32,000 nt of DNA from Candidatus Saccharimonadota bacterium (GTDB taxonomy: Archaea; Nanohalarchaeota; Nanosalinia; Nanosalinales; Nanosalinaceae): contig NZ_CP107255.1 of NCBI RefSeq assembly GCF_029232205.1, positions 390,001-422,000 of the forward strand, read 5' to 3'. Position numbers and translations under genes: made by a program. This document shows, piece after piece, positions 2,105 to 31,816 of the stretch. Below the pieces are notes generated by a model. The model searched no databases. It was not told the DNA's origin and saw only the letters and a program-made list of their open reading frames with translations. Position 1 is the first letter of the stretch. Each line of letters begins with the position of its first letter.

Positions 2105-2353
2105 TTAATCTCTAGGGTAGATCTGTTCTCCTTCAAGTGTAATCTTTGAGTCCTCGTGCAGGTGCACTGCGAACTCATCGGTGAAAATTGCTGTAATCGA
2201 TGCATTTTTCATTTTCAGGCCTTCTTCTTTCTCCATTCTTTCCCGAAGTTCCTCCGGTCTCTCTACTTCCGCCAGGTCTTCGGTGTTGATATCTGTCTTG
2301 ATGAATACTATGTCGCTGTCTCCGCGGTCGAACACTATGTCGTCCTTATTCAT
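2105..2353 (-). CDS. small acidic hypothetical protein (82 aa)
   Basis: Its ATG overlaps the ABCE1 stop by 8 nt (ATGAATAAG). Acidic composition matches the neighbours. No recognisable motif. Confidence 0.5.
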   Translation of the reverse strand: MNKDDIVFDRGDSDIVFIKTDINTEDLAEVERPEELRERMEKEEGLKMKNASITAIFTDEFAVHLHEDSKITLEGEQIYPRD

Positions 2354-4157
2354 CTTTCTTCACTGCTCTCTGCTCGTAGAACTCGTCCTTCTTCCTTTGC
2401 TGCTTGTCTTTCTGACTCTCCGGTTTGTTGGCTCGAGGCCTTCCTGTTTCAGGGTCTTTTCTGAAGGTCAGGTCTACAAGTTTCAGGAACTTGTTCATGG
2501 CCTTTCCAATTTTAACTGGTTCTTCGGCGTATCCTTTAACCCCTGGTTCTCCTTCGAATACAAGGCCTCTGTCGGAGATGTAGTCTAATAGGATGAGGTC
2601 GTGGTCGATCACCATTACTGGTTTCTCGGTTTTCCGTGCGAACCTCTTGATTACTCTTCCCAGCTCCACTCTTGATTCGACGTCCAGGTAGGCTGATGGC
2701 TCGTCCAGTACGTATACATCTGCGTTCCGTGATAGGCAGATTGCTACTCCAACTTTCTGTAGCTCTCCTCCTGACAGGTCCTGAAGATTCTGTTCGTAAA
2801 GGTTATCTACTCCCAGTGGTTCAGCGATTCTGTTCTTGAATTTCTTGTTTTCTGGATTGACGTGCTGAGATATTGCGGCCTCTACATTGGCATCCTGGGC
2901 CTCTAGGTACTGTGGTTTGAAGGAAAGATCGACTTCAGGTGATTCTCCCTGATCTGGCTCAAGTGCACCGGCCAGCATCTTTGCGAATGTGGTCTTTCCC
3001 AGGCCGTTCTCTCCGAATATGCCCAGTACTTCTTCCTCATGTAGTATTCCTTTTTCCATTTCAAGTGAGAACTCTCCTTCTCCGAAACTTTTCGCTAGTT
3101 CCGGGTATTCGAATACTGAAGCCTTTTTCTCCACCTGGCTTCTTTTTGTCCGTTTGAAGTCGATGGATTCTCCTCTGATCTGCAGGTTGTGTGTTTTCAG
3201 GTATCCGTCGAGGTACTGATTGATTCCTTCACGAGTTGAGAATGCGTTGGATACCATTCCGTATGCGCCGGCCTCTCCGTGGAATACGTGTACTGCATCG
3301 GATACAAGGTCAAGTGTGGCCAGGTCGTGTTCTACTACCAGGACTGCTGCATTGTCTGAGAGAGATCTGATGGCCTCTCCAATATTCAGTCTTTGCTTGA
3401 CATCTAGGAAGGAGGATGGTTCGTCAAACATGTACAGGTCTGCGTCTTTGACCATTGTGGCTGCGATTGCAACTCTCTGTAGCTCTCCACCGGAAAGCTC
3501 GTCAAGTTTTCTATCCATCAAATGCTGGATATCAGTCTTCTCCGCAACTTCTTCTACTGAGTCTCTCTCATCTTCTTTTTCCAGTAAATCTTCAACTGTT
3601 CCCTCGTGAAACTCAGGTATTTTATCTACTTGCTGGGGTTTGAATGCAGAGGTTACTTCTCCTTCAGCAAGCTTGTTGAAATGATTCTGAAGGCCTGTTC
3701 CACGGTATTCCTTCTTGATCTTGCTCCATGAAGGCTCTTCGTCGAACTGGCCCAGGTTTGGTTTGATATCTCCTGAGAGAATTTTCAGGGCTGTGGATTT
3801 TCCGATTCCGTTTCTTCCGAGTATTCCTGTTACCCGACCTTCTTTTGGCTCTGGCAGGCCGTAAAGTCTGAATGAGTTTTCCCCGTACTGGTGGATTTTT
3901 TCCCCGAACTCTCTGTCCAGTCGGACCAGCTGGATTGCGCCATCGTATGGGTATTTGTTGATAGCCATTTTGTGGGCCTCCATGACGTTTTCGTTGTCGA
4001 TGTGGAGGTGGCCTTCTTCGTCGAGATGGAATCCGCCTTCTTTCCCTGACCTGTTCAGAGGGTCGTATTTGATTACTGTTTCTTTGGCCAGGTCTGGTTC
4101 TATTTTTTCCTGGTCGATTACTACGATGAAGTTCTTTGCGTTTTTTCCTGTGCTCAT
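2346..4157 (-). CDS. abce1: ABCE1/RLI ribosome-recycling ATPase with a cysteine-free N-terminal domain
   Basis: Twin ABC cassettes: Walker A GRNGIGKST and GENGLGKTT, signatures LSGGELQRV and LSGGELQKV, Walker B LYMFDEPSS and VYVLDEPSA. The ABCE1-type N-terminal ~80 aa domain is present but contains no Cys. TATA-like TTAATTAAAA lies at 4180-4189. Confidence 0.9.
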   Translation of the reverse strand: MSTGKNAKNFIVVIDQEKIEPDLAKETVIKYDPLNRSGKEGGFHLDEEGHLHIDNENVMEAHKMAINKYPYDGAIQLVRLDREFGEKIHQYGENSFRLYGLPEPKEGRVTGILGRNGIGKSTALKILSGDIKPNLGQFDEEPSWSKIKKEYRGTGLQNHFNKLAEGEVTSAFKPQQVDKIPEFHEGTVEDLLEKEDERDSVEEVAEKTDIQHLMDRKLDELSGGELQRVAIAATMVKDADLYMFDEPSSFLDVKQRLNIGEAIRSLSDNAAVLVVEHDLATLDLVSDAVHVFHGEAGAYGMVSNAFSTREGINQYLDGYLKTHNLQIRGESIDFKRTKRSQVEKKASVFEYPELAKSFGEGEFSLEMEKGILHEEEVLGIFGENGLGKTTFAKMLAGALEPDQGESPEVDLSFKPQYLEAQDANVEAAISQHVNPENKKFKNRIAEPLGVDNLYEQNLQDLSGGELQKVGVAICLSRNADVYVLDEPSAYLDVESRVELGRVIKRFARKTEKPVMVIDHDLILLDYISDRGLVFEGEPGVKGYAEEPVKIGKAMNKFLKLVDLTFRKDPETGRPRANKPESQKDKQQRKKDEFYEQRAVKKDE

Positions 4158-4246: not shown

Positions 4247-4750
4247 TTACTCGAAGGAGAGTTCGTATTTCTCTCCTGTGATCTGTTCGATTAGGTCTTC
4301 GAACTCTGAGTTGGAGAGGTTGATCTTTCCTTCGTAGTCTTCGTCGACGACGATCTTCTTGTACTGGCCGTCAGGGCTGAATACTGTGTTGATGGATTCA
4401 ATTTCAGCTGGGCTGAGCAGGCCTTTGATGACTTCTTTGTCGTCCTGGCTTTTTTCGACTACTCGGATTGATTTTCCGATTTCTTCTGCGAGTTTCTTGA
4501 CGATGTCTCCACTTCTTCCAACTACTTTGGCTCCGTCTCCTTCTGCTGTGACTATTACTACGACGTTTGCTGTGTCGTATGCGTGTTTGATTTCTGAGTC
4601 TCTTAGTGAGCCGTATTCGTTGCTTAAGTCCTGTAGAGTTCTTGAAATTTCAATTTCGAGATCGGATATCTCACCGTTCTCGTATTTCTCCTTGCAACTG
4701 CTGCAGAGCACATCGCTCTTCAAGCAGACGTTACATATTGGTGCCTTCAT
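4247..4750 (-). CDS. zinc-ribbon plus KH-domain RNA-binding protein (NusA-like/KH family)
   Basis: N-terminal CNVC...CSSC zinc ribbon. KH GXXG loop VGRSGDIVKKLAEEIG. 167 aa. Confidence 0.6.
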   Translation of the reverse strand: MKAPICNVCLKSDVLCSSCKEKYENGEISDLEIEISRTLQDLSNEYGSLRDSEIKHAYDTANVVVIVTAEGDGAKVVGRSGDIVKKLAEEIGKSIRVVEKSQDDKEVIKGLLSPAEIESINTVFSPDGQYKKIVVDEDYEGKINLSNSEFEDLIEQITGEKYELSFE

Positions 4751-4827: not shown

Positions 4828-5331
4828 TCAGAGTGTTGCAAGGCTTGTTCTCAGGGTTCTGGTTATCTCGTAAAGTGTAAGCACTGCTACAAGCACAAGA
4901 CTGTAGAAAAGACTGTAAGCAGCAACCGTTTGACCTAGAAGGCCTATTCCAATAACTAAAGTTCTCAGCTCGAATCCTGCATAAGGAGTGATCACTGTTT
5001 TGGAAACTGCCTCGGCCTCATCCCGAATTGTTTCGCCCAGGAAGATCAAAAGAAGTGTCGCCACTGCCAGCGGCTTGCTAACTGAAGGAGCAGTTACAGC
5101 GGTCAGCAGTAGAAGTGTTTCGATTGATTTCTGAGAGTAAACCAGTTTCAACTCATCAAGATCTGTGAGACTGGTTTTAGAACTCTCTCCTTCTGCGTAA
5201 CGGTAAGCTATCAGTGAGCCTACAGCTGTAAGGCCTGCGAGAACTGGCTGTTTGAATGCGAAAAATGCTACAGGAGTTAGAATAGCCAGTACAAGAGATG
5301 AGATTAGCAGGCCTTCGTTACGAGTATCCAT
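4828..5331 (-). CDS. hypothetical integral membrane protein
   Basis: 167 aa with about 5 hydrophobic segments. A TATA-like element lies about 23 nt upstream of the ATG. Confidence 0.6.
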   Translation of the reverse strand: MDTRNEGLLISSLVLAILTPVAFFAFKQPVLAGLTAVGSLIAYRYAEGESSKTSLTDLDELKLVYSQKSIETLLLLTAVTAPSVSKPLAVATLLLIFLGETIRDEAEAVSKTVITPYAGFELRTLVIGIGLLGQTVAAYSLFYSLVLVAVLTLYEITRTLRTSLATL

Positions 5332-5653: not shown

Positions 5654-6733
5654 TTATTTCATGACTTCGAGGCCGAGGTCGTTTACGTCTCCTTTTACCT
5701 CGGTTTCTTCCTCTTCTTCGAGTTCTCCGAGGACGTAAGGTGATTTCACGCCTGTGATGATGGAGATGACTTGAAGCTTTCCTTTGAGGTCGTCTCTGAT
5801 TCTTGCACCCCAGATGACTTGTGCGGAGCGGTCGAGTTTTTCTGTGACTAGTTGTCCTACGTCGTTGATTTCGTTGAGTGTGAGGTCTTCGCCTCCTGCT
5901 ACATGCAGTAGTGCTCCGTTTGCTCCGTCGAACTCCACGTCGAGTAGCGGGTTGGATAGTGCTTCGTGGATTGCTTCCTTTCCTTTGTTGTTTGTGTCTG
6001 ACTCTCCGTATCCTACTACTGCTACTCCTCCTTCGTTCATCACTGCCTGGACGTCTGCGTAGTCAAGGTTGACTAGTGACGGCTTGGAGATTGTTTCTGT
6101 GATTCCCTTGATCATCGTGGTGATCAGTTCGTCGGCTACCCCGAATGCCTGATCGAGAGGCATATCGCCTGCAATATCAAGCAGTTTGTCGTTTTCAATT
6201 ACGATTGCTGTGTCTACGTGCTGTCTTAGTTTGTAGAGGCCGTCTTCTGCCTTGCTCATTCTTGCGCCTTCGATTGAGAATGGCATTGTGACGGTTCCTA
6301 TTACTATGCAGTCTTCTTTCTTTGCGATCTCTGCAAGAACTGGTGCTGCGCCTGTACCTGTTCCTCCTCCCATTCCTGCGGTGAGGAAGACCATGTCAGC
6401 TTCTTTGAATAGTGATCTTAGTTCGGCCCTGTTCTCTTCTGCTGAACGGGCGCCTTTTTCAGGTTTTCCGCCAGCTCCGAGTCCACGTGTTAGATCTTTT
6501 CCTACAAGTATTTTTCTATCTGCGGAGGCCATTTCTAGGTGCTGTTTGTCGGTGTTGATGGCAACTGTATCGGCTCCCTCTACTTCCTTGTTCTGGATTC
6601 GAGTTACCTGATTGTTGCCAGCTCCTCCTACTCCTACAACTAGAATTCTAGCATCTTTTACATCATCAAGATTTTCAGTGGCATTCTGGCCTTCATTCTG
6701 AGAGTCTGGCGTGTTGTCGATTATAGATTCCAT
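5654..6733 (-). CDS. ftsZ: cell division GTPase FtsZ
   Basis: GVGGAGNN and the tubulin signature GMGGGTGTGAAPV. 359 aa with an acidic C-terminal tail. Confidence 0.95.
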   Translation of the reverse strand: MESIIDNTPDSQNEGQNATENLDDVKDARILVVGVGGAGNNQVTRIQNKEVEGADTVAINTDKQHLEMASADRKILVGKDLTRGLGAGGKPEKGARSAEENRAELRSLFKEADMVFLTAGMGGGTGTGAAPVLAEIAKKEDCIVIGTVTMPFSIEGARMSKAEDGLYKLRQHVDTAIVIENDKLLDIAGDMPLDQAFGVADELITTMIKGITETISKPSLVNLDYADVQAVMNEGGVAVVGYGESDTNNKGKEAIHEALSNPLLDVEFDGANGALLHVAGGEDLTLNEINDVGQLVTEKLDRSAQVIWGARIRDDLKGKLQVISIITGVKSPYVLGELEEEEETEVKGDVNDLGLEVMK

Positions 6734-8096: not shown

Positions 8097-9089
8097 TTAT
8101 CTGTCGCTCTGACGAAGCATAACATTGTATCCAAGATCGGAGCGGCCATCGTGGTTTCCGAGTCTCTCTAGGGCGTCTAGTACTACTTTGATTTCGTCTA
8201 CCTTTCTCTCGACTTGTTCGCTAACATGGCCGAAATTTCTCATTGTTTTCTGGAGGTTTCTTCTCTGCTCTTCTGCTGAAGTGGCAAGTATCTCTGTAGT
8301 ATTGTCTAATCTGCCGCTGTAGGTAAGCTCTTCTGGCCTCTCACTAAAGGCTGTGAAATCGTCTCTGGATTGTGGTTTAAGATCGCTTATGGCGTAGGGG
8401 TGTTCGTGGATATGCTCTGGTCCGAACTCACTTGCGTACTCTGGCTTCGAAGTCTTAAGAAGTGAAGAGTGTACACTCATGTCGTTTGATATGTGAGAAT
8501 GCCCTGAGAATAGAACAGTAGTATCGAATTCTGACGCCAGTTTTTCTGCATTATCTGCCATTCCGACAGACCTCTTCTGTATTGAAAGTGGAACACCTGA
8601 GTCCTCATAGAAAGGACCTTTCTCAGGTTCAAGTCCATGAACTTCTGTATCATTCTCCTCTAGAGCTTCAAAGAACTCATTATACATTTCTTCATCTCTA
8701 ACGTATCCTGTAACTGTGTTCAGGTGATCGATAACTTCCTGAGAAGAAACTTTTCCTTGATTGTATTCTGATACTAGCTCATCATCTTCATAGATAAATT
8801 CTAGGCCTACAACGTCTGGAGAGGTTTCTTCTACAATCTCTGTTAGTGCAGGAAGCCCATCTCCTCTTGTCATGTGTCTCTCGCCAACAAGAATATTGTT
8901 ATCATATTCTATCTCTTCTGAATCTTTCCAGCTGTATAGCTCTGATTCAAAGGCCTCTAGCATCTGAGCAGAATCATCTGTGTAACTTTCTTCCTGGCCT
9001 GAGAAAAGCCCTCCGGAAAGGCCGGTAAGTCCAGCGAGAGCTCCTTTAGCAAAATCTCTTCTCCCCAGTGAAAAACCACTCCTACTCAT
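8097..9089 (-). CDS. Tat-signal secreted protein, possibly ChaN/TIKI-superfamily-like
   Basis: Twin-arginine signal SLGRRDFAKGALAGLTGL. Motifs ILVGERH, VGLEF and LFSGHSH are reminiscent of the ChaN/erythromycin-esterase/TIKI fold. Confidence 0.4.
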   Translation of the reverse strand: MSRSGFSLGRRDFAKGALAGLTGLSGGLFSGQEESYTDDSAQMLEAFESELYSWKDSEEIEYDNNILVGERHMTRGDGLPALTEIVEETSPDVVGLEFIYEDDELVSEYNQGKVSSQEVIDHLNTVTGYVRDEEMYNEFFEALEENDTEVHGLEPEKGPFYEDSGVPLSIQKRSVGMADNAEKLASEFDTTVLFSGHSHISNDMSVHSSLLKTSKPEYASEFGPEHIHEHPYAISDLKPQSRDDFTAFSERPEELTYSGRLDNTTEILATSAEEQRRNLQKTMRNFGHVSEQVERKVDEIKVVLDALERLGNHDGRSDLGYNVMLRQSDR

Positions 9090-9172
9090 ATGTTGTTACT
9101 GTTCAGTTACAGTTATATTGTTTTTGTGTGGTGGCAGAGATTTTTTTAAGAGTCGCCTGTGAAATCGGTTTC

Positions 9173-10534
9173 ATGGGCCTTAAAGAAGTAGTTGAATCGG
9201 ACGAAGAAGTAAACCATGAAGAATTCCTGCAGGAACTGAAAGATAAGAATGAAGAGCTAAACTTCATGAGAGAGATCGAGCAGGGAGAAACAAAGGAAGG
9301 CCCTCTGAATAATGTGCCGTTTGTTGTAAAAGACGCAATCTGTACGGAAGGAACAACAACTTCTGCAGGATCAAAAATACTAGAAAACTACACTCCGGTA
9401 TTCGACGCAACAGTAGTGGAAAGACTGAAAGAGGCCGGAGCACGTTTCTACGGCAAAACAAACCAGGACGAGTTCGGATTCGGTACCTTCTCCACGAACT
9501 GCGCATTTGAAACACCGAGAAATCCTCACGATGAGGAAAGAGTGGTCGGAGGATCTTCAGGTGGAGCAGGAGCAATCGTTGCAGCAATGGACCAACCTCT
9601 AATCTCAATAGGAGAGTCCACAGGAGGATCCATCACAAATCCTGCAGCATACAACGGAGTAGTGGGAATCACACCAACATATGGAAGAGTATCAAGATAC
9701 GGCCTTGTAGACTACGCAAACTCACTTGACAAAATAGGAGTTCTCGCAGAAACAGTATTTGGAGTAGCGAAAGGCCTGGAAGTAATAGCGGGAGAAGACG
9801 AAAGAGATCAGACAACATCAGAAAAAGAAGTACCAGAATACTCCACCAATCTTTCAGAGACAGAAGGAAAACTTGCAGTACCTGTACAGTACCTGGAACT
9901 TGAGGGAGTAGAGGAAGGAGTAATGGAGAACTTCAAGGCCTCCATCGAAGAACTTGAGGAAAAAGGATTTACAGTAGAAGAAGTTGACATGCCACTTCTC
10001 TCAGCAGATGTAGCTGTGCCAGCATACTACGTTCTCGCGATGAGCGAGGCCTCTACCAACCTGGCAAAAATGTCAGGAATCAGATACGGAATGGAAATGG
10101 ATCCTGAGGACTTCGACGACTTCAATGAATACTTCTCAGAGGTCAGATCCGAAGGATTCGGTGAAGAGGCCAAGAGAAGAATTCTTCTTGGAACATATAC
10201 ACGCCAGGCAGGATACAGAGATGAATACTACATTAAGGCCGCAAAGGTAAGGCAGAAGATCATCAACCAGTACCAGGAGATCTTTGAGGAATACGATGCA
10301 GTAATCAGTCCTTCAATGCCGAACATTGCTCCGAAGATTGAAGAGGCAGAATCCATGGCTCCGGAGGAAATCTATGCGATGGATACTCTCACCGTAGGCC
10401 CTAACCTGGCTGGTATGCCGATGATCTCAGTACCTAACGGAGAAAGCAAAGGAATGCCGACAGGCCTTCACATAGTAGGAGACCACTTTGAGGAGCAGAA
10501 AATACTGGATCTGGCCTATAACTATTCGAATTAA
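9173..10534 (+). CDS. gatA: Asp/Glu-tRNA amidotransferase subunit A
   Basis: Amidase signature GGSSGGAGAIVAA and KDAICTEGTTTSAGSKIL. I start it at ATG 9173. TATA-like TTTTTTTAAG lies at 9141-9150. The track start at 9068 would overlap the divergent gene. Confidence 0.9.
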   Translation: MGLKEVVESDEEVNHEEFLQELKDKNEELNFMREIEQGETKEGPLNNVPFVVKDAICTEGTTTSAGSKILENYTPVFDATVVERLKEAGARFYGKTNQDEFGFGTFSTNCAFETPRNPHDEERVVGGSSGGAGAIVAAMDQPLISIGESTGGSITNPAAYNGVVGITPTYGRVSRYGLVDYANSLDKIGVLAETVFGVAKGLEVIAGEDERDQTTSEKEVPEYSTNLSETEGKLAVPVQYLELEGVEEGVMENFKASIEELEEKGFTVEEVDMPLLSADVAVPAYYVLAMSEASTNLAKMSGIRYGMEMDPEDFDDFNEYFSEVRSEGFGEEAKRRILLGTYTRQAGYRDEYYIKAAKVRQKIINQYQEIFEEYDAVISPSMPNIAPKIEEAESMAPEEIYAMDTLTVGPNLAGMPMISVPNGESKGMPTGLHIVGDHFEEQKILDLAYNYSN

Positions 10535-10560: not shown

Positions 10561-12096
10561 ATGGCTACTGAAGAAGGGGGTTTTCAGAGTTCGGTAGATC
10601 AAATACTTGAGGAGAGTAAAGGCCGTGTAGTGGATGATGTTTCGGGAGAGCTCGAATCAAGTCTTGAACTTAACTCTGAAGGTTACGAGGGTCTTACTGA
10701 ATATGCGGAAGAAGCTATCAGCGAAGTTGAATCAACAGAAAATCCATATGATATAGTTGGGCTTTCAAAGGATCTAAAGGAGAATGTAACAGATCTAGTT
10801 GCCTATGGAGAACTTTTCAGCCAGAAACTCGGGTTTCTCAGCGAATTTCAGGAAGAACTGGTTGATGAAGAAGATATAGAATATGCAGAGCAGTACCTCC
10901 AGGAAAATGAGCATCTTGAAGATACTAGAATTGATGCAGAAGATATTGCAACTGTAAAGGCCCTTAGAGATGGCAGACTTTACGATGAGCTCATGTCTAT
11001 GGGCGATGAAAGGGAATGGGATACAGCTACGATTGGAGATTCCTTGCTATTTGACAACGTCAACGATGTGGCCGATGCAGTTATTGCAGATTACTACTTT
11101 AGAGGTGGAAAAGGCCTTAGAAGCACTATGGGCCAGATAACGCAGTATGGTTTCGAGGATTCTGTCGACTACCAGACTGTAATGATGGGGGCCATGGCAG
11201 AGACGTTCCACTCATCGACACTTGTGCAGGATGACCTGATGGATGGAGATACGGAGAGAAGAGGTAGAGATTCAGCAAACATGATTATGGATCATGTATT
11301 CGGTGAGACCGGAGAAGATATTCCGATTACAACAGGCAACGTTATGGAATCATGGACTAATGATCTCAACGTACATGAGCAGCTGGATATACCTCAGAAA
11401 TCCAAAGAGACATTTGTCAGGGTACAGGATGTTGTTAACAGAGGCCAGAATGAAGATATTTTGATGGGTCACGACCTGGACAGCCTCGATATAGATGATT
11501 ACAAGCACATGAGTATGGGTAAGACAGGATTCCTCTACGGTGGAATACTGAAGATGGTTGCAGAGCACTCCATGGAGAATCTTGACTACACCGAGGAGGA
11601 ACGTCAGGAAGTCAACGAACTTCTGGGAGATTATACAGCTAACTTCAACTTCGCATTCCAGTCAAGCGACGACCTGATAGAAGTACTGGGTGGAGAGACA
11701 GGAAAGTCCGACAGCGACATACCGAACAGAAAAAGAACAGCAACAGTTCTAACTACAGACAGGGCCATGCAACTTCAGGACGAAGATATCAACGGCATGC
11801 CTGCTGAAGAATACTTCAGAGCATTCTTCTCCACAGATCCTGAGAACGACCCAACAGAGAATATAGAGGCCGCAGAAGGCGTGGAGTTCCCTGAAAACAT
11901 CTACGACAACCAGATCCGACGCATAATGGAGGAAAAAGAAGATATTCACAGAGCCCAGCTTGAAGAATGGGCCACGGAAGCCTCAAAAGCTGCTGAAAAC
12001 ATGCAGGAAGTACGAGGATCAGAAGACGGGTTAAACGCTGGAGCTGCAAACCTTCTAAGCAAGGCCGCAGAAGCCATGAACCAGAGAACTCACTAA
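10561..12096 (+). CDS. atypical long trans-polyprenyl diphosphate synthase homologue (511 aa)
   Basis: GGKGLRS. First Asp-rich motif HSSTLVQDDLMDGDTERRG. GKTGFLYGG. Second motif FAFQSSDDLIE followed by GKSDSDIPNRKRT. It also has an acidic N-terminal extension of about 190 aa and internal insertions. Confidence 0.6.
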   Translation: MATEEGGFQSSVDQILEESKGRVVDDVSGELESSLELNSEGYEGLTEYAEEAISEVESTENPYDIVGLSKDLKENVTDLVAYGELFSQKLGFLSEFQEELVDEEDIEYAEQYLQENEHLEDTRIDAEDIATVKALRDGRLYDELMSMGDEREWDTATIGDSLLFDNVNDVADAVIADYYFRGGKGLRSTMGQITQYGFEDSVDYQTVMMGAMAETFHSSTLVQDDLMDGDTERRGRDSANMIMDHVFGETGEDIPITTGNVMESWTNDLNVHEQLDIPQKSKETFVRVQDVVNRGQNEDILMGHDLDSLDIDDYKHMSMGKTGFLYGGILKMVAEHSMENLDYTEEERQEVNELLGDYTANFNFAFQSSDDLIEVLGGETGKSDSDIPNRKRTATVLTTDRAMQLQDEDINGMPAEEYFRAFFSTDPENDPTENIEAAEGVEFPENIYDNQIRRIMEEKEDIHRAQLEEWATEASKAAENMQEVRGSEDGLNAGAANLLSKAAEAMNQRTH

Positions 12097-13547: not shown

Positions 13548-14447
13548 ATGAAGGCCGACGAGTTCCTCGAAGAAAAAGGCCTCGACTTTGAAGTAGTAGA
13601 ACAGGATAATCCTACCCTCGACTGCGACGACGCAGCCCGCGAAAGAGGAGTAAAAACATCTCAGATAGCGAAAAGCCTGATCGTAGACAGAGATGGAGAC
13701 AAAATACACTGCGTACTGCCAGGCGATCGAAAACTCTCAGCAGGAAAATTCGGAGAACACAGACTAGTAGACCCTGAAGAATCCCTTGAAATCACGGGAC
13801 AGGAATCAGGTACAGTACACCCATTCTCATCACAACTTGAACACAGAATCGACAGAAAACTTCTAGAAAGAGACAGAATCTCGTTCACTACGGGAGACAG
13901 CCAGAAAGGAGTAATAATAGATACAGAAAAATTCAGGCAGGGCCTGGAAAAAGCAGACTTCACCTACCAGATAAAAGACATCGTCGACTTCAACGAAAAA
14001 GATATTGAAGAACTGGAAGAGAAAGGCCTTGACGAGGAAGAAGCAAGATTTGTCCTTTCAAGAGGCCTCGAAAAACAGTTTGAAGAACTCAACAGTACTC
14101 ATGAAACCAGTCTGGTGATAGGCCTCCTCGAAGAGTTCGGCCGCCACGACCTTGAATACAGCAGCAAAGTATCAGAAGAAATACTCTCCCGGGCTGAAAG
14201 AGAAACCCACATGCAGAAACTGGTACAGGCCTACGACCGTGAAGGAGAACTACCGGAAGAAAAAGACTTCTCACTTGAGAAGGCTGTTGAAAAAGTAATG
14301 TCGGAAAACTCTGATGCTGTAGAGGACTACAGAGAGGGAAAGGATTCTGCACTGAACTATCTACTGGGACAGGTAATGAAGGAGACCAATGGAAAAGCCG
14401 ATGGCGGAAAGGCCCGAAAAACTTTGATGGACAAACTGGAGGCCTAA
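13548..14447 (+). CDS. YbaK/ProX-type aminoacyl-tRNA deacylase domain fused to a GatB C-terminal (GatB_Yqey-like) domain
   Basis: Residues 1 to about 150 carry YbaK/INS-superfamily motifs: QIAKSLIV (conserved Lys), GTVHPF and RISFTTGD. Residues about 150-299 parallel the GatB C-terminal domain, from EKGLDEEEARFVLSRGLEKQFEEL to SALNYLLGQVMKETNGKADGGKARK. The start lies 2 nt after the gatB stop. Confidence 0.7.
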   Translation: MKADEFLEEKGLDFEVVEQDNPTLDCDDAARERGVKTSQIAKSLIVDRDGDKIHCVLPGDRKLSAGKFGEHRLVDPEESLEITGQESGTVHPFSSQLEHRIDRKLLERDRISFTTGDSQKGVIIDTEKFRQGLEKADFTYQIKDIVDFNEKDIEELEEKGLDEEEARFVLSRGLEKQFEELNSTHETSLVIGLLEEFGRHDLEYSSKVSEEILSRAERETHMQKLVQAYDREGELPEEKDFSLEKAVEKVMSENSDAVEDYREGKDSALNYLLGQVMKETNGKADGGKARKTLMDKLEA

Positions 14448-26875: not shown

Positions 26876-27676
26876 TCAGGAAAAATACGGTAATTCCTCT
26901 ACAGCCATGCTGAACCTGCCATTCTGGTAAAGTGCAACACCGAAACCGGCCGCGATCAGCACTGGAACAGGATTCAGGTAGTAGAGGTTGATGAAACCCC
27001 ACAGAAATACGAAACTGACCATGTCATCCAGCATGTAATCGGTCGATCTCAGACGGCTTTCAACATCGATATCGCGGAAAACATACTCCAGTACAAGCAG
27101 ACATATCGAGGCCGAAAGCAACCAGCCTGTAAAGTTGGAAAGCGGAACACCGTAGAAAAGGCCTCCTCCATAACTCCAGATTCCGAGGGCCACGGCCGCA
27201 GGATCAAGAACTGCATCAATCAACAATACAAGGCCCACTCCTGCTAAGAACCTCTCCCAGAAATCTTTCAGATCGTAGAGTCTTACCAATAGGAAGCTGT
27301 TAAGCACCAGGGGCACGAAGAAGACTGGGAGGCCTACAGGAACGCCATGAACCATAGGACCCAGACTGATCAGATACGAGAAATCGCCGTAAGGCCATCC
27401 CGTGCTCAAGCCCACGAACTCGATAAGATATGCATACAGCGAGATTGCCAGAATTCCTATTCCTGCCTTTCTATCAATCAAAGGCCTCAGGCCCGCTATC
27501 AATGGAGTTCTCATTACCAGTGTTCCGAAAAGTATGAAGAAGGGATTGAACTCGAGAAAACCTGGTAGAAGGCCTTCAGCAGATGCCAGAAATGTTGCAG
27601 CTCCGACAATAGGAAAAACCACGGATATTGTAAATCTGTTTTCTGAAACCAGTTCCTCAAGCCTATCCATGAACAA
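26876..27676 (-). CDS. cruF: CruF-like carotenoid biosynthesis membrane protein (bisanhydrobacterioruberin hydratase family)
   Basis: STGWPYGDFSY...GP...GVP and LDPAAVALGIWSY are typical of the Caroten_synth/CruF family. 14-nt overlap with the upstream lyeJ-like gene. Confidence 0.65.
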   Translation of the reverse strand: MFMDRLEELVSENRFTISVVFPIVGAATFLASAEGLLPGFLEFNPFFILFGTLVMRTPLIAGLRPLIDRKAGIGILAISLYAYLIEFVGLSTGWPYGDFSYLISLGPMVHGVPVGLPVFFVPLVLNSFLLVRLYDLKDFWERFLAGVGLVLLIDAVLDPAAVALGIWSYGGGLFYGVPLSNFTGWLLSASICLLVLEYVFRDIDVESRLRSTDYMLDDMVSFVFLWGFINLYYLNPVPVLIAAGFGVALYQNGRFSMAVEELPYFS

Positions 27677-28496
27677 GCACCCACAGACCGGCCAGAGTCA
27701 GAACCATTCCAGCTAGAGAATTGATGTAGGGATAATACCAGTAGGCCTCCGAATCACTGAGATTGGAAAGATAGAAACCAATACAGAGCAGAGGATAAAT
27801 ACTCATCAAAGCTCCTGCATAAAGATTGTAGAGGCCTGCAAGCAATGCGGCTACGGTCCAGAGAACAGTACAGTAGATGAAAGTATTCTTTCTCTCAAGG
27901 AAAGTAGCCGTGGTCGAAACACCGGCCTCCCTATCGGGCTCAATATCTGGAATAGCGGAGAAAGTATGCATCGCCATCGACCAGGCCCAGCCAGCAGCCA
28001 GAACTGTTAAAGGAGGCCAGCTACCGGTAACAGCGCTGTAAGCTACTCCCAACGGCAGGATGTAGAGGCCATTGCTGATAGAGTCCAGGAAAGGCCTTGC
28101 CTTGAACCTGAACGGTGGGGTGCTGTAAGCAACCGACAATGCAAGGAATCCGATCATGAATGGCCATGCAGCTCCTGCAAGAGGTACAGTCACAGGGATT
28201 GAGGTTACTGTTGCTGCCACTATGATTGAATCTGTGAAGCTGCTGGCCCTGTAGGCCTCTTCCTTATCATCCTTCTTCGGGTTTTTCTCGTCGATATCCC
28301 TATCGAAGTAATCGTTGATTCCGTACAGCATGATGTTGGCGGGAATCAAAAAGTAGAGGAATATCAGGAAGTTCTCAACAGTAAATAATTGTTCAACTGA
28401 TTCTGCGCCAAGAACCATTCCAAGGATTGCAGGGCCTGCCAGATAAAGCCAGAAACGAGGCCTTGACATTTTCAGTATGTATTTCAGGTCATTCAA
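27663..28496 (-). CDS. lyeJ: UbiA-family prenyltransferase, lycopene elongase (LyeJ)-like
   Basis: SRPRFWLYLAGPAILG N-terminus and NDYFDRDIDEKN (NDxxDxxxD). It sits between the desaturase and cruF, as in the haloarchaeal bacterioruberin cluster. Confidence 0.7.
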   Translation of the reverse strand: MNDLKYILKMSRPRFWLYLAGPAILGMVLGAESVEQLFTVENFLIFLYFLIPANIMLYGINDYFDRDIDEKNPKKDDKEEAYRASSFTDSIIVAATVTSIPVTVPLAGAAWPFMIGFLALSVAYSTPPFRFKARPFLDSISNGLYILPLGVAYSAVTGSWPPLTVLAAGWAWSMAMHTFSAIPDIEPDREAGVSTTATFLERKNTFIYCTVLWTVAALLAGLYNLYAGALMSIYPLLCIGFYLSNLSDSEAYWYYPYINSLAGMVLTLAGLWVLVHG

Positions 28497-29964
28497 GGTC
28501 TTCTTCCACCTTTTCAGCTACGTGCTCTCCGCTGATCAGGCACATCGGCATTCCGATACCGGGATTGGTGTACTGACCTGTGTAGTAAAGGCCTGGCATC
28601 TTCTTCGATCTCTGTTTAGGCCTGAATACAGATGTCTGTCTCAATGTGTGAGCTATGCCGAGTGCTGTGCCGTTGAAGCTGTTGTAGCGTTTTTTGAACT
28701 CTTCTCCAGCAAAGATTCTTTCGTAATCGATCCTTTCTCTGAGGTCTTCGCCTGTGTTCTCAGCAAGATCATCCAGCACCAGTTCTCTGAACTCTTTTCT
28801 CTGTTCTTCATCAAGTTCCAAGTCCGCTGCGATTGGAACAAGAATAAACAGTGCGGAATGACCTTCTGGAGCCACTGTGTCATCGGTCTCTGAAGGATTG
28901 CAGACGTAGTATGCAGGGTTTTCTGGTAGGGCGGGTTCGTCGAATATTCTGTCAAAGTGATCGTCCCACTCCTCTGGAAGAACCAGTGTGTGATGATCTA
29001 GGTTCTCGAGATCTCCTTCAACACCTAGATACATCAGGAATGCTGAAGGAGCATAGGTCCTGGACTCCCAGTAATCTCTGTCATAAGTTGTGTATTCGTC
29101 CGGAAGAAGCTCTGTCTCGGCAAATGCATAGTCGGCGTTCGAAACTACAGCATCGCACTCGACTGTTCTAGTATCTGTTACAACTGTATTCTTTCCTTCG
29201 ACTCTGTTAATCTTCCTGACCTCTTCGTTTGTCGATATCTCTACGCCTTTCTCCTCTGCCAGCTCTTCCATGGCCTCGATAACGGAGTAAATACCTCCTT
29301 CAGGATAGTAAACTCCCATGTTAAAGTCAACGTGACTCATCAGGTTGTAAAGCGCTGGTGTGTTTTCAGGTGACCCTCCAAGAAATACAAGAGTGTACTG
29401 CATAACCTGCTGAAGCTTTGGATTATCGAAGTACTCCTCAACGTGATCCTGCATCTTCTTGATCAACGAAATCCCACGAGCATTCCGCAGAACATCCAGA
29501 GACACGTAGTCCCGGAAATTGTTTCTGTCTTTCAGAACAAACTCGTTCATACCGATCTCATAAGTCTCCTCGGACTTCTCAAGATATCTCTGGAACTGCT
29601 CTGCAGCACCGTCCTCGTACTCCTCAAAGAGCTCTCCGGCCTCATCAGGATCAGCAGGCACATCCATCAAGTCGCCATCCTTGAAGAAAATCCTGTAGTT
29701 AGGATCCAGGCGGTGAAGCTCGTAGAACTCCTCAGGATCACGATCAAACTTGTTGAAAAATCTCTCGAAAATATCAGGCATCAGGTACCATGAAGGCCCC
29801 ATATCAAACCTGTAGTCATCTTCCTCAAGCACAGAGGCTCTCCCACCAACCTCGTGATTTTTCTCTATTAATTCAACGTTGAAACCGCTGTCAGCGAGGA
29901 AACAGGCCGCTGATAGGCCTCCAAATCCTCCACCAACTACTATAATATCTTTTTCCGTGCCCAC
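28489..29964 (-). CDS. crtI: phytoene-desaturase-family carotenoid desaturase (CrtI or CrtD type)
   Basis: FAD fold IIVVGGGFGGLSAA, EVGGRAS and FDMGPSWYLMPD. GTG start. 8-nt overlap with lyeJ. CrtI and CrtD cannot be distinguished by eye. Confidence 0.8.
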   Translation of the reverse strand: MGTEKDIIVVGGGFGGLSAACFLADSGFNVELIEKNHEVGGRASVLEEDDYRFDMGPSWYLMPDIFERFFNKFDRDPEEFYELHRLDPNYRIFFKDGDLMDVPADPDEAGELFEEYEDGAAEQFQRYLEKSEETYEIGMNEFVLKDRNNFRDYVSLDVLRNARGISLIKKMQDHVEEYFDNPKLQQVMQYTLVFLGGSPENTPALYNLMSHVDFNMGVYYPEGGIYSVIEAMEELAEEKGVEISTNEEVRKINRVEGKNTVVTDTRTVECDAVVSNADYAFAETELLPDEYTTYDRDYWESRTYAPSAFLMYLGVEGDLENLDHHTLVLPEEWDDHFDRIFDEPALPENPAYYVCNPSETDDTVAPEGHSALFILVPIAADLELDEEQRKEFRELVLDDLAENTGEDLRERIDYERIFAGEEFKKRYNSFNGTALGIAHTLRQTSVFRPKQRSKKMPGLYYTGQYTNPGIGMPMCLISGEHVAEKVEEDLE

Positions 29965-29982
29965 ACGCTAGTTGTGAGCTAC

Positions 29983-29993
29983 TTATTTTAAAT
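29983..29993. promoter_or_regulatory. single AT-rich TATA-like element shared by the divergent crt operons
   Basis: TTATTTTAAAT lies 25-35 nt upstream of the crtB ATG (30018) and 19-29 nt upstream of the desaturase GTG (29964). The spacer is only 53 nt long. Confidence 0.4.
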
Positions 29994-30017
29994 CGGTTTT
30001 CGATAAAAATATTTGAT

Positions 30018-30836
30018 ATGGATTCTGAACTTCAGGAGGTCTTCAAAAACAACTCAACCTCCTACTACTACAGCAGCCTCTTTTTCCCAGAAAAAGTCAA
30101 AGAGGACGTATTCAAACTTTATGCATACGTAAGAACAGCCGATGACTTCGTAGATGAGGAACCGCAGGACGAGGAAGGCCTGAAAGAGTTCAGAGAAAAA
30201 ACAATGAACAACTGGGACTCAGGAAAGTCAGGGGACAAAATAGTTGACAGCTTCCTGGAAGTAGCCCGGAAAAAAGATTTCCACAGAGAATGGGTAGAGG
30301 CCTTCCTGGACTCAATGGAGGCCGACCTGCACAAATCAAACTACGTAACAATACAGGAAACCTTGGAGTACATCCACGGATCCGCTGAAGTCATCGGACT
30401 AATGATGGCTGCACTTCTGGAACTTGACGAAGACTCTTACCAGTACGCAGAAATGCTCGGAAGATCAATGCAGTACTGCAACTTCCTCCGCGACATCAAG
30501 GAAGACAACGAACTCGGAAGAGAGTATCTGCCGGACGAAGAACTGGAGAAATATGGTCTCGACGGCCTGGACGAAGCTGATATCGATGACGAAGACTTCA
30601 AGGAATTCATGAGAGACCAGATCCAGCTTTACAGAGAATGGCAGAAAGAAGCCGAAAAAGGCCTGAAATACATTCCTTACAGAGTCAGAATCCCGGTAAT
30701 TCTCTCATCCAGACTGTACAAATGGACTGCGAAAAAGATTGAAAAGAACCCGATGAAGGTTTACAGGAAAAAAGTAAGGCCTTCAAAGCCGAGAATTCTA
30801 TTCGAACTACTGAAATCTTTGAGAGGTCGAAACTAG
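30018..30836 (+). CDS. crtB: phytoene synthase
   Basis: YVRTADDFVDE and FLRDIKEDNELGREYLP Asp-rich motifs. 272 aa. Confidence 0.9.
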   Translation: MDSELQEVFKNNSTSYYYSSLFFPEKVKEDVFKLYAYVRTADDFVDEEPQDEEGLKEFREKTMNNWDSGKSGDKIVDSFLEVARKKDFHREWVEAFLDSMEADLHKSNYVTIQETLEYIHGSAEVIGLMMAALLELDEDSYQYAEMLGRSMQYCNFLRDIKEDNELGREYLPDEELEKYGLDGLDEADIDDEDFKEFMRDQIQLYREWQKEAEKGLKYIPYRVRIPVILSSRLYKWTAKKIEKNPMKVYRKKVRPSKPRILFELLKSLRGRN

Positions 30837-31816
30837 TGTACGATACTTCGGAGAATAAAGAAAAGATAATATCTCGCCTGGAAGACTGCAAGAAAAACTG
30901 TGAACTATCAAAATACGGCTGGGGAGAGGAAACAATTGAAATACTGTACGATCTCTCCACAAGAGGAAAAATGGTGAGAGGAAGCCTCCTCATGGATGCA
31001 ACAGAAATAATGGGCGGTGAAGAAGACAGCATACACTATGCAGCAGCCACAGAACTTATACACACCGGCCTTCTTGTCCACGACGACATAATAGACAGAG
31101 ATGAGAAAAGAAGAGGTGTAGACTCTGTACACGTCCAGTTCAGATCAGAAGAAATAACCGACAGACAGACAGAAAACCTTGCAATCTGCGCCGGCGATAT
31201 ATCATACTTCACAGCATACGAAATAATTTCACAGGCCTCCAATCTCGACTCAGAGGCCCTTTCAGAGTTCTCATCCACGTTTGCAAGAGTAGGAGTGGGA
31301 GAAATGTCGGACATAGTTCTCTCAGGAAGACTTGAAACAGTAGAGGACGAAGTACTGGAAATCCACAGAAACAAGACCGCATGCTACACCTTTGCAATGC
31401 CGCTGAAGATAGCATCAATACTTGCAGAAGGCCCGGAACTTGAGAAACTGCACGAGATAGGAATGAAAATGGGAGTACTCTACCAGATAAGAGACGATCA
31501 CCTGGACATCTTCTCAAATGAAGACGACACAGGAAAACCTGTGGCCTCCGACATACAGGAAGGAAAGAAAACACTTCACACAGAAATCCTCAGAGAAAAA
31601 ACCTCTGCAGGAGAAGAACTCTACGAGGAAAAAACAGTAGAAGAGGCCCGCGAAGTAGTCCGGAAAATGGAAGAATCCAGCGTACGGAAAGAAGTTGAGA
31701 AAAGAATCGAGGCCCGAAGAGCAGAAGTTATAGAGCTGATAGAGGGTCTGGAGAATCCTGAGCTCCGCGAACTGCTGAAAGACGTCCTCCAACTTGTAAT
31801 ACAGAGAGAAAAATGA
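30836..31816 (+). CDS. idsA: short-chain trans-polyprenyl diphosphate synthase (GGPP synthase-like)
   Basis: LVHDDIIDRDEKRRG and YQIRDDHLDIF followed by GKPVASDIQEGKKT. The GTG start overlaps the crtB stop (TAGTG). Confidence 0.8.
   Translation: MYDTSENKEKIISRLEDCKKNCELSKYGWGEETIEILYDLSTRGKMVRGSLLMDATEIMGGEEDSIHYAAATELIHTGLLVHDDIIDRDEKRRGVDSVHVQFRSEEITDRQTENLAICAGDISYFTAYEIISQASNLDSEALSEFSSTFARVGVGEMSDIVLSGRLETVEDEVLEIHRNKTACYTFAMPLKIASILAEGPELEKLHEIGMKMGVLYQIRDDHLDIFSNEDDTGKPVASDIQEGKKTLHTEILREKTSAGEELYEEKTVEEAREVVRKMEESSVRKEVEKRIEARRAEVIELIEGLENPELRELLKDVLQLVIQREK

Follow-up and report, generated by a model that had tools for sequence, protein, structure and literature searches.

A conserved ABCE1 of nanohaloarchaea with a cysteine-free homologue of the iron-sulfur domain

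The window analysed here, a DNA stretch of 32,000 nucleotides in total, carries a complete ABCE1 (RLI) gene on the minus strand (2346–4157; 603 codons and a stop codon). Its N-terminal domain (N-domain; residues 1–80, 3918–4157, minus strand) is a homologue of the ferredoxin-like domain which in canonical ABCE1 binds two [4Fe-4S] clusters, with all eight cluster ligands replaced by other residues, and purifying selection acts strongly on it despite the missing Cys. The protein probably represents a functional, cofactor-free ABCE1, in which the N-domain has become a protein-only module of canonical length and fold through stepwise loss of the clusters.

Results

The assignment of the gene rests on its open reading frame, on the NCBIfam equivalog NF009945, on P. 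abyssi ABCE1 (3bk7), and on identity with the GenBank entry WEL23285.1. The translated ORF reached 729.3 bits with NF009945 (cut-off 469), with residues 11–596 covering positions 4–590 of the 592 in the model, and matched 3bk7 over residues 9–594 with an E-value of 5e-163. All 603 residues are identical to WEL23285.1, which is annotated as RLI and derives from the closed 1.05-Mb genome of the cultivated Ca. Nanohalovita haloferacivicina. PF00005 (Pfam) matched the protein in two stretches, and both ABC cassettes display a Walker A motif, a Q-loop region, an LSGGE signature, the D-E of Walker B, and an H-loop. Located by the 3bk7 alignment and by column invariance, the motifs of NBD1 are Walker A (G114–S121, GRNGIGKS; 3795–3818), the ABC signature (L221–E225, LSGGE; 3483–3497), and Walker B with the catalytic Glu (residues 241–246, LYMFDE; 3420–3437), while those of NBD2 are Walker A (G382–T389, GENGLGKT; 2991–3014), the ABC signature (L461–E465, LSGGE; 2763–2777), and Walker B with the catalytic Glu (residues 481–486, VYVLDE; 2700–2717), all on the minus strand. 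In 67 nanohaloarchaeal sequences, the columns G114/K120, L221–E225, D245–E246, H277, G382/K388, S462–E465, D485–E486, and H519 are invariant. NF009945, the 3bk7 alignment, and these motif columns bear out the preliminary description, made from the sequence alone, which had named the gene an ABCE1 with both ABC cassettes apparently intact; a count of Cys residues likewise upheld its statement that the only Cys of the 603 residues lies in NBD2. This residue, C474 (VAICLS; 2736–2738, minus strand), is not conserved, and several orthologues, e.g., P0037, P0042, P0079, P0085, and P0088, contain no Cys at all.

Codons 1–80 translate exactly to the peptide quoted in the preliminary description, where it was regarded as an FeS domain retained in length and flanks with every Cys position substituted. 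Both hhalign and the residue mapping support that view. The canonical eight-Cys pattern of ABCE1, CX4CX3CX3CP ... CX2CX2CX3CP, is unmet, as residues 1–95 are devoid of Cys; neither of the two CX2CX2CX3CP-type cluster-binding motifs of a bacterial-type 2x[4Fe-4S] ferredoxin-like domain is present in the N-domain, and the Pfam families Fer4_RLI (PF04068) and Fer4 (PF00037) gave no match in the protein even at E ≤ 1. In 32 diverse canonical N-domains, none of the eight Cys columns varies (32/32). Against a profile of the canonical FeS domain, hhalign aligned the N-domain over 77 columns with a probability of 95.7% and an E-value of 1e-8; the possibility that the domain is unrelated to the FeS domain was checked in this way, and the profile–profile comparison speaks for homology. 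Together with the AlphaFold and pN results given below, this supports the reading of the domain as a homologue of the canonical FeS domain lacking all eight ligands. Among the 120 closest database homologues, all of them nanohaloarchaeal, 119 have an N-domain without Cys, and PF04068 is absent from 119 of the 120. Since the 32 canonical domains show no variation at the eight Cys positions, which are all substituted both here and in 119 of the 120 homologues, the loss cannot be attributed to chance.

According to the profile and residue alignments, the ligands of cluster II are replaced by I19 at Cys1 (4101–4103), A24 at Cys2 (4086–4088), V28 at Cys3 (4074–4076), and Y69 at Cys8 (3951–3953), the latter being followed by the conserved Pro70; A24 and V28 are invariant in the type-1 Cys-free clade. 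The ligands of cluster I are replaced by D32 at Cys4 (4062–4064), followed by the conserved Pro33, M59 at Cys5 (3981–3983), H62 at Cys6 (3972–3974), and A65 at Cys7 (3963–3965), with all these codons on the minus strand. D32 and H62 are invariant in the 18 aligned N-domains (18/18), which comprise the Cys-free lineages and three forms retaining one cluster. Asp also occupies Cys4 in Halorutilales, Met is found at Cys5 in every Cys-free type and in Halorutilales, and His at Cys6 in Halorutilales and in two one-cluster forms of Nanoarchaeia.

Such conservation could mean that the former cluster I site is now a mononuclear metal site (e.g., for Zn2+, Fe2+, or Cu+), with Asp32, His62, Met59, and perhaps water or a nearby Glu or His as ligands, serving as a new structural cross-link. 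Asp, His, and Met often serve as metal ligands, the three residues sit exactly at the ligand positions C4, C6, and C5, and D32 and H62 are invariant, M59 nearly so, throughout the Cys-free lineages and the one-cluster forms of Halorutilales. However, conservation extends to just two or three possible ligands: H52 varies (Lys in P0122 and P0137), as does E60 (Arg in P0122, Lys in P0137), and C7, the fourth ligand position, holds Ala or Ile. Moreover, a hydrogen bond between Asp and His combined with packing of Met, a geometry that was left unchecked, would account equally well for the conservation. A metal site of this kind is considered unlikely, though it cannot be dismissed; the absence of any metal from the domain is itself an inference from sequence, without metal analysis.

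The N-domain showed pN values of 0.09–0.11 versus 0.16–0.23 in the NBDs, with amino acids changing half as fast as in the ATPase body, and a mean column identity of 78%. Values of pN instead of dN/dS are reported because synonymous sites were saturated. The lower pN of the N-domain, together with the Cys-free state of 119 of the 120 closest homologues, argues that the sequence is neither an error nor a pseudogene.

A structure prediction of the N-domain had been called for in the preliminary description. The full-length AlphaFold model was confident, with a pLDDT of 88.9, a pTM of 0.85, and pLDDT values of 85–95 in the N-domain, which is placed as in solved ABCE1. The model superimposed on ribosome-bound ABCE1 7o80 (7o80_Bz) with a TM-score of 0.92 and an rmsd of 2.4 Å over 599 columns, N-domain included, and on 3bk7 with a TM-score of 0.84. 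As far as a prediction can tell, the overall ABCE1 fold matches the solved structures, and so do the packing of the N-domain against NBD1, the inserted HLH, and the hinges. The N-domain was also compared with the (beta-alpha-beta)2 fold of bacterial-type 2x[4Fe-4S] ferredoxin-like domains; its predicted secondary structure is beta-alpha-beta-beta-alpha-beta, with strands at residues 10–14, 42–45, 51–54, and 75–79 and helices at 21–31 and 58–67. Modelled in isolation from Cys-free sequences only, the domain reached low confidence (pLDDT 62.5), and the best PDB match of this model, the FeS domain of 6tmf_d, was weak (E = 0.024, TM-score 0.47). The confidence assigned to the N-domain within the full-length model may in part reflect a memory of ABCE1 in AlphaFold.

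In S. solfataricus ABCE1, P25, R28, and S29 contact the ribosomal protein uS12 in the post-splitting complex, and Y291, N316, and S580, from the two hinges and the cantilever region, bind the ribosome (PMC7196836). The three uS12 contacts map to the motif P33-L-N-R36-S37-G38 (P-x-x-R-S-G; 4044–4061, minus strand), in which P33, N35, R36, and G38 are invariant among the 67 nanohaloarchaeal sequences, while Ser or Ala prevails at position 37, with Pro or Thr in a few of them. In the same set, and as judged from the alignment only, the corresponding residues Y299, N324, and S581 of the hinges and the cantilever are invariant. The rRNA contacts R2 and K15 of S. solfataricus ABCE1 correspond to F10 and L23 and are not conserved. 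For the N-domain, this mapping relies on an S. solfataricus N-terminal sequence that we presume to be correct. Its numbering agrees with every residue named in PMC7196836. With this proviso, the uS12-contact motif is kept in the window ABCE1.

The two changed rRNA contacts (R2 to F10 and K15 to L23, by the same presumptive mapping), as well as the reduced genomes and unusual biology of nanohaloarchaea, would fit an N-domain that has been repurposed. The protein would then bind the ribosome via its hinges and HLH without driving its splitting, its part being limited, e.g., to anti-association or initiation, or the splitting being left to another factor. By pN, however, no other part of the protein is as conserved as the N-domain, and its length, predicted fold, docking on NBD1, and uS12-contact motif are all kept; in addition, we know of no alternative ribosome-splitting factor in archaea. 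Repurposing thus seems quite improbable.

Upstream and downstream genes were also compared. The conserved order of the locus is FtsZ – (membrane protein) – KH protein – ABCE1, and the neighbourhood of GatA, FtsZ, KH protein, and ABCE1 is kept in L001 and L002, which supports the orthology of the Cys-free ABCE1. A complete gene table is available for Ca. Nanohalococcus occultus, a member of the sister genus; it contains one RLI, which is Cys-free, lies beside FtsZ, and is transcribed at an RPKM of 2361.

The window gene might still be a decaying or accessory copy, with a canonical eight-Cys ABCE1 elsewhere in the genome being the essential one. A second copy is excluded only by proxy, in the sister genus, and not through a scan of the whole genome from which the window originates, and a nanohaloarchaeal MAG, P0060, does encode an N-domain with five Cys. 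Against this, the gene of P0060 is situated at the same syntenic locus and is, therefore, an orthologue and no extra copy; the RLI of Ca. Nanohalococcus occultus is the sole one in its gene table, is next to FtsZ as in the window, and is transcribed; and the window gene itself has all ATPase motifs intact and a low pN. A hidden canonical copy is accordingly very hard to sustain. An artefact of sequencing, assembly, or reading frame at the 5' end of the gene, a concern already raised with the preliminary description, was checked and can be excluded, as nothing was found in its favour, the independent record WEL23285.1 from a closed genome carries the identical protein, dozens of independent assemblies, more than 119 altogether, share the Cys-free N-domain, and the frame is unbroken with a conserved N-terminus.

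Two general explanations for the missing Cys were tried and rejected. Loss of Fe-S assembly is ruled out as a cause, since the SUF system is kept and expressed in two cultivated relatives: Ca. Nanohalococcus occultus has and transcribes genes for SufB, a second protein annotated as SufB, SufS, a NifU-like protein, and SufC, and SufB, SufD, and SufC proteins were detected in Ca. Nanohaloarchaeum antarcticus. With other Fe-S enzymes also annotated in cultivated nanohaloarchaea, the earlier idea of tying the loss to the Fe-S economy of the lineage turned out to be weak. Genome-wide avoidance of cysteine is ruled out as well, as the predicted proteins of the window contain 0.68% Cys and the KH protein adjacent to ABCE1 has a zinc ribbon with four Cys.

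Discussion

The clusters of ABCE1 are often cited as a reason why Fe-S assembly is indispensable in eukaryotes, and, to our knowledge, the prevailing view has been that they are essential and occur universally. As to what else the clusters do apart from keeping the domain intact, proposals range from redox sensing to a role that is structural only. The Fe-S domain is described as essential, and its structural and mechanical role is established (PMC7196836, PMC3442406). According to a review of experiments with engineered variants, ribosome splitting and Pelota binding depend on this domain and most of the ligand cysteines are essential in yeast; the domain has also been called an “Achilles' heel” of aerobic cells under oxidative stress (PMC3442406). 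A full-text literature search revealed no published description of a Cys-less or one-cluster ABCE1.

In comparison with canonical ABCE1/Rli1 (P. abyssi 3BK7, the archaeal post-splitting complex 6TMF, and mammalian 7O80), the window protein has the same arrangement of N-domain, NBD1 with HLH, hinge 1, NBD2, and hinge 2, all ATPase motifs, 39–44% identity, a predicted TM-score of 0.84–0.92, and a homologous N-domain of equal length with the uS12-contact motif conserved. It differs in the lack of all eight ligand Cys, so that two [4Fe-4S] clusters cannot be bound in the known way. One or both clusters are also missing from the ABCE1 constructs without FeS domain (1YQT, 3OZX) and from Cys mutants of yeast Rli1 (e.g., C58A); in these engineered variants, however, the domain is deleted or destabilised, whereas the window protein keeps a complete, conserved, and compensated domain. 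A parallel is subunit D/Rpo3 of archaeal RNA polymerase, which carries an Fe-S domain in some lineages and is cluster-free in others, the structural cluster being replaced there by protein packing. This is a different protein family, and the ABCE1 clusters, by contrast, have been thought universal and essential.

A functional, cofactor-free ABCE1 could work as follows. The protein would be the single ribosome-recycling ATPase of Ca. Nanohalovita haloferacivicina, a single copy having been demonstrated only in the sister genus. The mostly aliphatic or aromatic replacements, namely I19, A24, V28, and Y69 for cluster II and the Asp32-Met59-His62 triad with A65 for cluster I, would presumably occupy the two cavities left by the clusters and link one half of the fold to the other, a packing that is inferred. 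As the N-domain would still dock on NBD1 and keep its P-x-x-R-S-G surface for uS12, it would still act as a rigid wedge. Closure of the NBDs would swing this wedge into the intersubunit space and split the ribosome, after which the N-domain would park at h44/uS12 of the small subunit. That splitting activity is retained is inferred, in the absence of an activity assay or genetics. What drove the change is likewise a matter of inference: relief from an oxygen-sensitive and iron-requiring supply of clusters in tiny aerobic brine cells is conceivable, yet a driver based on reactive oxygen species or iron limitation remains speculation, given that SUF and other Fe-S proteins have been retained.

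These data suggest that the clusters of ABCE1 are only structural props, as would follow if the protein splits ribosomes without metal. For the more far-reaching claim, that the clusters are purely structural and fully dispensable, with cluster I lost once (leaving the Asp-Met-His scar), cluster II lost at least twice independently, and the cofactor-free wedge still splitting ribosomes, we see the balance tipped only slightly in favour. That a natural, strongly conserved Cys-free ABCE1 occurs in an organism that can be cultivated and has a closed genome makes the role of the clusters directly testable, and so do the graded one-cluster forms of Halorutilales and DPANN. If the reading is true, the Asp/Met/His and Ile/Ala/Val/Tyr substitutions would amount to a recipe for engineering a cluster-free, oxygen-insensitive ABCE1, and the protein would itself be a recycling factor independent of oxidation and iron, with an N-domain that could be moved into model ABCE1s. 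It would also be a reason not to list ABCE1 automatically among Fe-S clients when metalloproteomes are predicted.

The one-cluster forms of Halorutilales and DPANN come from a scan of genome contigs; two nanohaloarchaeal genomes were among the matches listed. In Halorutilales (Halorutilus salinus WP_266088491.1 and Halorutilales archaeon Cl-col2-1), C1, C2, C3, and C8 are kept, with Asp, Met, and His at C4, C5, and C6, and related one-cluster patterns were seen at least in Nanoarchaeia MAGs, a Woesearchaeota MAG, and the nanohaloarchaeon P0060; some DPANN and the nanohaloarchaeon, too, retain cluster II alone and carry Asp and His at C4 and C6. Judged by the ligand pattern, the four kept Cys would be enough for one [4Fe-4S] cluster (cluster II). 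These one-cluster proteins of Halorutilales and DPANN are the closest non-nanohaloarchaeal relatives among the matches listed (52–58% identity), and in a rough NJ tree they group with the nanohaloarchaeal sequences at 72% bootstrap. The one-cluster forms of Halorutilales and DPANN share the Asp, Met, and His at C4, C5, and C6 and the FDPLNRS motif with the window protein; they differ in keeping C1, C2, C3, and C8, sometimes also C7, of which the window protein has lost C1–C3 and C8 too, and they still match PF04068, whereas the window protein does not.

The loss was probably stepwise, in that cluster I (C4–C7) disappeared first, a state still present in Halorutilales and some DPANN, and cluster II (C1–C3, C8) later, probably at least twice within Nanohaloarchaeota. 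Besides type 1, two more divergent types of Cys-free N-domain exist. A profile search with the divergent forms P0122, P0124, P0137, and P0060 retrieved no further relatives of these forms. P0060 as a basal intermediate in a simple vertical history is unsupported: by its NBDs and neighbouring genes it nests within the Cys-free clade, while its N-domain shows 47–48% identity to that clade versus 63% to the halobacterial-type fragment P0206. Recombination or repeated loss may lie behind this mosaic pattern. The one- and zero-cluster states, together with the mosaic N-domain of this one nanohaloarchaeon, may be useful markers in the debate on how nanohaloarchaea are related to haloarchaea and exchange genes with them.

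Identity of the window ABCE1 and loss of its cluster ligands

The ABCE1 ORF of the window (2346..4157, minus strand) encodes a protein of 603 aa which, judged by its sequence, is beyond doubt ABCE1/RLI. It aligned end-to-end with the NCBIfam equivalog NF009945 (729 bits, cut-off 469) and matched P. abyssi ABCE1 (3bk7; E=5e-163, residues 9-594), with mammalian, yeast, and Sulfolobus ABCE1 as next matches. Pfam revealed two ABC_tran domains, while Fer4_RLI and Fer4 were not found by Pfam, even at E<=1. Both cassettes are intact, as the preliminary description had suggested, each displaying Walker A, LSGGE, the D-E of Walker B, and the H-loop. It had also placed the only cysteine in NBD2, where we identified it as C474 in the string VAICLS, and the peptide it quoted is the exact translation of codons 1-80 (3918-4157).

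Its central claim was that the FeS domain has been kept in length without any cysteine. Alignment of a profile of 37 Cys-free N-domains with one of 32 diverse canonical N-domains, in which the only invariant columns are the eight ligand cysteines (C1-C8) and two prolines, covered 77 columns with a probability of 95.7% (E=1e-8), and confirmed that the N-terminus is homologous to the canonical domain, all ligands being replaced. In the work of Barthelme in 2007 and Karcher in 2008, the ferredoxin-like cluster I is said to be held by C4-C7 and cluster II by C1, C2, C3, and C8. In the window protein, C1, C2, C3, and C4 correspond to I19, A24, V28, and D32, and C5, C6, C7, and C8 to M59, H62, A65, and Y69, a mapping reproduced by multiple alignment; the prolines following C4 and C8 are kept as P33 and P70.

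A full-text literature search, which was not exhaustive, found no description of a Cys-less or single-cluster ABCE1, nor a paper linking ABCE1/Rli1 with nanohaloarchaea beyond a taxon abbreviation. Such a protein should strongly interest those who study translation or Fe-S biology.

Conservation, predicted structure, and possible mechanism

Across nanohaloarchaea, the N-domain is the most conserved part of ABCE1, with a mean column identity of 78%. Comparison of the window with the loci of two relatives (L005 and L006) gave a pN of 0.09-0.11 in the N-domain and 0.16-0.23 in the NBDs, synonymous sites being saturated (pS at least 0.75). The full-length AlphaFold2 model, built on an alignment of 67 sequences, reached a pLDDT of 88.9 (85-95 for residues 11-70) and a pTM of 0.85. 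Because it superposes on the ribosome-bound mammalian ABCE1 7o80 (TM 0.92, rmsd 2.4 A, 599 columns), the N-domain is predicted to sit on NBD1 as in pre-splitting ABCE1. A model of the isolated N-domain from Cys-free sequences only was weaker (pLDDT 62.5); it has a beta-alpha-beta-beta-alpha-beta order, and its top PDB match, itself weak (E=0.024, TM 0.47), was the FeS domain of the archaeal post-splitting complex 6tmf.

N-terminal residues were mapped to S. solfataricus ABCE1 by our own alignment. There, the FeS domain contacts uS12 via P25, R28, and S29, and rRNA via R2, K15, N17, E19, and K59, while coupling to the ATPase involves the K12-P13-D14 loop, the cantilever residues I68 and N70, Y291, and N316 (PMC7196836). 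In the window protein, P33, R36, and S37 occupy the positions of the uS12-contacting residues, and the x-P-D loop is kept as E20-P21-D22, whereas R2 and K15 are not kept, being F10 and L23. In the nanohaloarchaeal alignment, P33, N35, R36, and G38 are invariant, as are Y299, N324, and S581.

The clusters of canonical ABCE1 are diamagnetic, buried, and regarded as structural, and its N-domain acts mechanically, being pushed out by NBD closure (PMC7196836, PMC3442406). The simplest reading, which is an inference, is that side chains take over the structural job of the clusters: I19, A24, V28, and Y69 would fill the cavity of cluster II and D32, M59, H62, and A65 that of cluster I, an Asp-His bond perhaps forming a cross-link, with the predicted helices 21-31 and 58-67 packing together. 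Otherwise the cycle would run as usual: the protein would bind beside aRF1 or aPelota, both ATP sites would close, the wedge would swing, and the ribosome would split; ABCE1 would then park at h44/uS12 and depart after hydrolysing ATP. This whole cycle, including ribosome splitting by a Cys-free ABCE1, is inferred. The finding is open to direct test, since the organism can be cultured: Ca. Nanohalovita haloferacivicina strain BNXNv is among the cultivated nanohaloarchaea (PMC10266531, PMC10443357). A plausible driver, for which there are no test data, is freedom from a cofactor needing an oxygen-sensitive, iron-requiring cluster supply; the cells are tiny aerobes, and the brines they inhabit are brightly lit and poor in iron. 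In yeast, the supply of clusters to Rli1 is the ROS-sensitive step (PMC3442406).

Instead of side-chain packing, D32, M59, and H62 might hold a mononuclear metal in place of cluster I, a possibility to which we give only a small chance and which cannot be excluded. That the N-domain has been repurposed is distinctly unlikely because of the conservation pattern. A second, canonical ABCE1 copy is very unlikely, on evidence from the sister genus and not from this genome: Ca. Nanohalococcus occultus SVXNc likewise has a Cys-free ABCE1 (P0075/P0089), and its complete RPKM gene table contains a single RLI (SVXNc_0634, RPKM 2361), two genes after FtsZ. Least room of all is left for a sequencing or assembly artefact, excluded in essence because the window protein is identical over 603/603 residues to WEL23285.1 / WP_347721197.1, which is annotated as RLI in Candidatus Nanohalovita haloferacivicina and encoded on a contig of 1,046,959 bp.

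Fe-S assembly in relatives

The loss had been linked to Fe-S economy in this lineage, a link that the SUF data weaken. SVXNc transcribes a full SUF set (SufB 0350, a second SufB-annotated gene 0355, SufS 0361, NifU-like 0362, and SufC 0363), and its annotations include Dph2, the primase large subunit, endonuclease III, and Rad3/XPD, all normally Fe-S proteins. In the proteome of Ca. Nanohaloarchaeum antarcticus, SufB, SufD, and SufC were detected (Hamm 2019, SI Table S4). With SUF thus transcribed in one relative and detected as protein in another, Fe-S clusters have not been abandoned by the lineage; the ligands of the other annotated Fe-S proteins are unchecked. Public annotation still labels Cys-free RLI proteins 'contains Fe-S'.

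Distribution and possible order of loss

The best 120 matches to the window ABCE1 among 5.8 billion proteins were all nanohaloarchaeal (65-92% identity), originating from Nanosalina, Nanohalobium, Nanohalococcus, SG9, and many MAGs. The first 95 residues lack cysteine in 119 of these 120, several of which have none in the whole protein. When 50%-identity representatives were searched, 8-11 N-terminal cysteines were found in nearly all other ABCE1s of full length. That search also uncovered the divergent P0122, with a Cys-free N-domain and the GatCAB/FtsZ/KH/ABCE1 neighbourhood of the window on its contig; of two further divergent ABCE1s, P0124 has a single Cys, at C7, and P0137 none. A second Cys-free type was found by a further search in other nanohaloarchaeal MAGs (P0299-P0305 and P0307). 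It shares Asp/Met/His at cluster I positions with the window protein but differs at those of cluster II, having Val at C1, Ala at C3, and Ile at C8, with C2 within a realigned loop, instead of Ile/Ala/Val/Tyr.

One-cluster forms also exist. In Halorutilus salinus, Halorutilales archaeon Cl-col2-1, and some 20 related halobacterial clusters, C1, C2, C3, C8, and sometimes C7 remain, while the C4, C5, and C6 positions are occupied by Asp, Met, and His; similar patterns were seen in one Woesearchaeota MAG and in two MAGs of soil Nanoarchaeia. The nanohaloarchaeal MAG protein P0060 keeps C1, C2, C3, C7, and C8. P0147, of unknown taxon (586 aa, from a Logan/ENA contig of 5.7 kb), has the opposite pattern, with C4-C7 and one extra Cys kept and C1-3 and C8 lost; judging by this pattern, loss can apparently begin with either cluster. 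The core nanohaloarchaeal ABCE1s form one clade (100% bootstrap) in a rough neighbour-joining tree restricted to the ATPase part, with P0122 as sister (62-91%), and a wider halophile clade (72%) also takes in the type-2 Cys-free and Halorutilales sequences. Since the Asp/Met/His scar is shared and cluster II residues differ, the sequences tentatively suggest that cluster I was lost once and cluster II at least twice; this order remains tentative because it rests on a neighbour-joining tree only, the proteomes are compositionally biased, and deep-node support is modest.

P0060 (5116-6897 of L001, GCA_042217695.1 contig JBDGSE010000027.1) is encoded at a syntenic locus, whose FtsZ, KH protein, and GatA are 88%, 81%, and 76% identical to those of the window. 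Its NBDs, 73-75% identical to core members, and these neighbours place it inside the Cys-free clade; its one-cluster N-domain with five Cys is only 47-48% identical to core members, which are 81-88% identical among themselves there, and 63% identical to the halobacterial-type fragment P0206. Window versus P0060 gave a pN of 0.35 in the N-domain and 0.16 in the NBDs, the reverse of the order in Cys-free pairs, while G+C is uniform along the gene. The N-domain may have been swapped between lineages by recombination, or cluster II lost repeatedly; we cannot decide between the two.

The ABCE1s of Halorutilales (class Halobacteria), of which L007 2989-4761 (Cl-col2-1, CP169074.1) and P0278-P0297 have four or five of the eight cysteines left, are nearer to nanohaloarchaeal ABCE1 (52-58% identity) than to the other archaeal sequences met in the searches and group with a nanohaloarchaeal subclade in the rough tree. 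This affinity could bear on nanohaloarchaea-haloarchaea relationships, gene transfer, or compositional attraction. The representative search also returned longer, apparently eukaryote-like ABCE homologues (P0165, P0174, P0175, P0184, P0198, P0200, P0236, and P0253) with only 3-8 N-terminal cysteines and a rewritten first motif, e.g. 'KCKPKSAAFVYLQKHAGGCGNACI' then 'ACAACMLRASHCP', which may represent a diverged family of ABCE paralogues whose cluster binding has changed.

Neighbouring and other window genes

Upstream of ABCE1 lie FtsZ (5654-6733), a membrane protein (4828-5331), and a 167-aa protein (4247-4750, minus strand) that combines a NusA-like KH domain with a four-Cys zinc ribbon at its N-terminus (CNVC...CSSC). 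The relatives' loci L001 and L002 keep this order, L002 lacking the membrane protein. In nanohaloarchaea, the gene directly upstream of ABCE1 is always that of the KH protein, which is annotated 'transcription elongation factor' in Ca. Nanohalococcus occultus; this protein is 81% identical in L001 and 70% in L002, and its tight linkage to ABCE1 and FtsZ is without explanation. The gene directly upstream of the one-Cys P0124 (this neighbour lies at L003 7428-8474) encodes a protein with HTH, ScdA_N, and hemerythrin domains, a combination known from di-iron proteins for 'repair of iron centres', which may be coincidence.

The window has a G+C content of about 45%, and its predicted proteins are strongly acidic (pI 4-5). 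Two plus-strand genes have unusual architectures: directly after gatB, a 299-aa fusion of aminoacyl-tRNA editing (YbaK/ProX-like) and GatB/YqeY C-terminal domains (13548-14447), and a 511-aa polyprenyl synthetase (10561-12096) whose N-terminal extension of about 170 aa had no domain match. A 330-aa ChaN/Tiki-like haem-binding family protein (8097-9089, minus strand) rests on a weak Pfam match just above the cut-off. The divergent GatA ORF (9068-10534, plus strand), for which a GTG start is given, shares 22 bases with this ORF, so GatA translation probably begins further downstream. Finally, a compact carotenoid (bacterioruberin-type) gene cluster spans 26876-31816 of this reduced DPANN genome, comprising a CruF-like carotenoid biosynthesis protein (26876-27676), a LyeJ-like UbiA prenyltransferase (27663-28496), and a phytoene desaturase-like amine oxidase (28489-29964) on the minus strand, and phytoene synthase (30018-30836) and a polyprenyl synthetase (30836-31816) on the plus strand; pigment synthesis by a host-dependent nanohaloarchaeon may merit attention.
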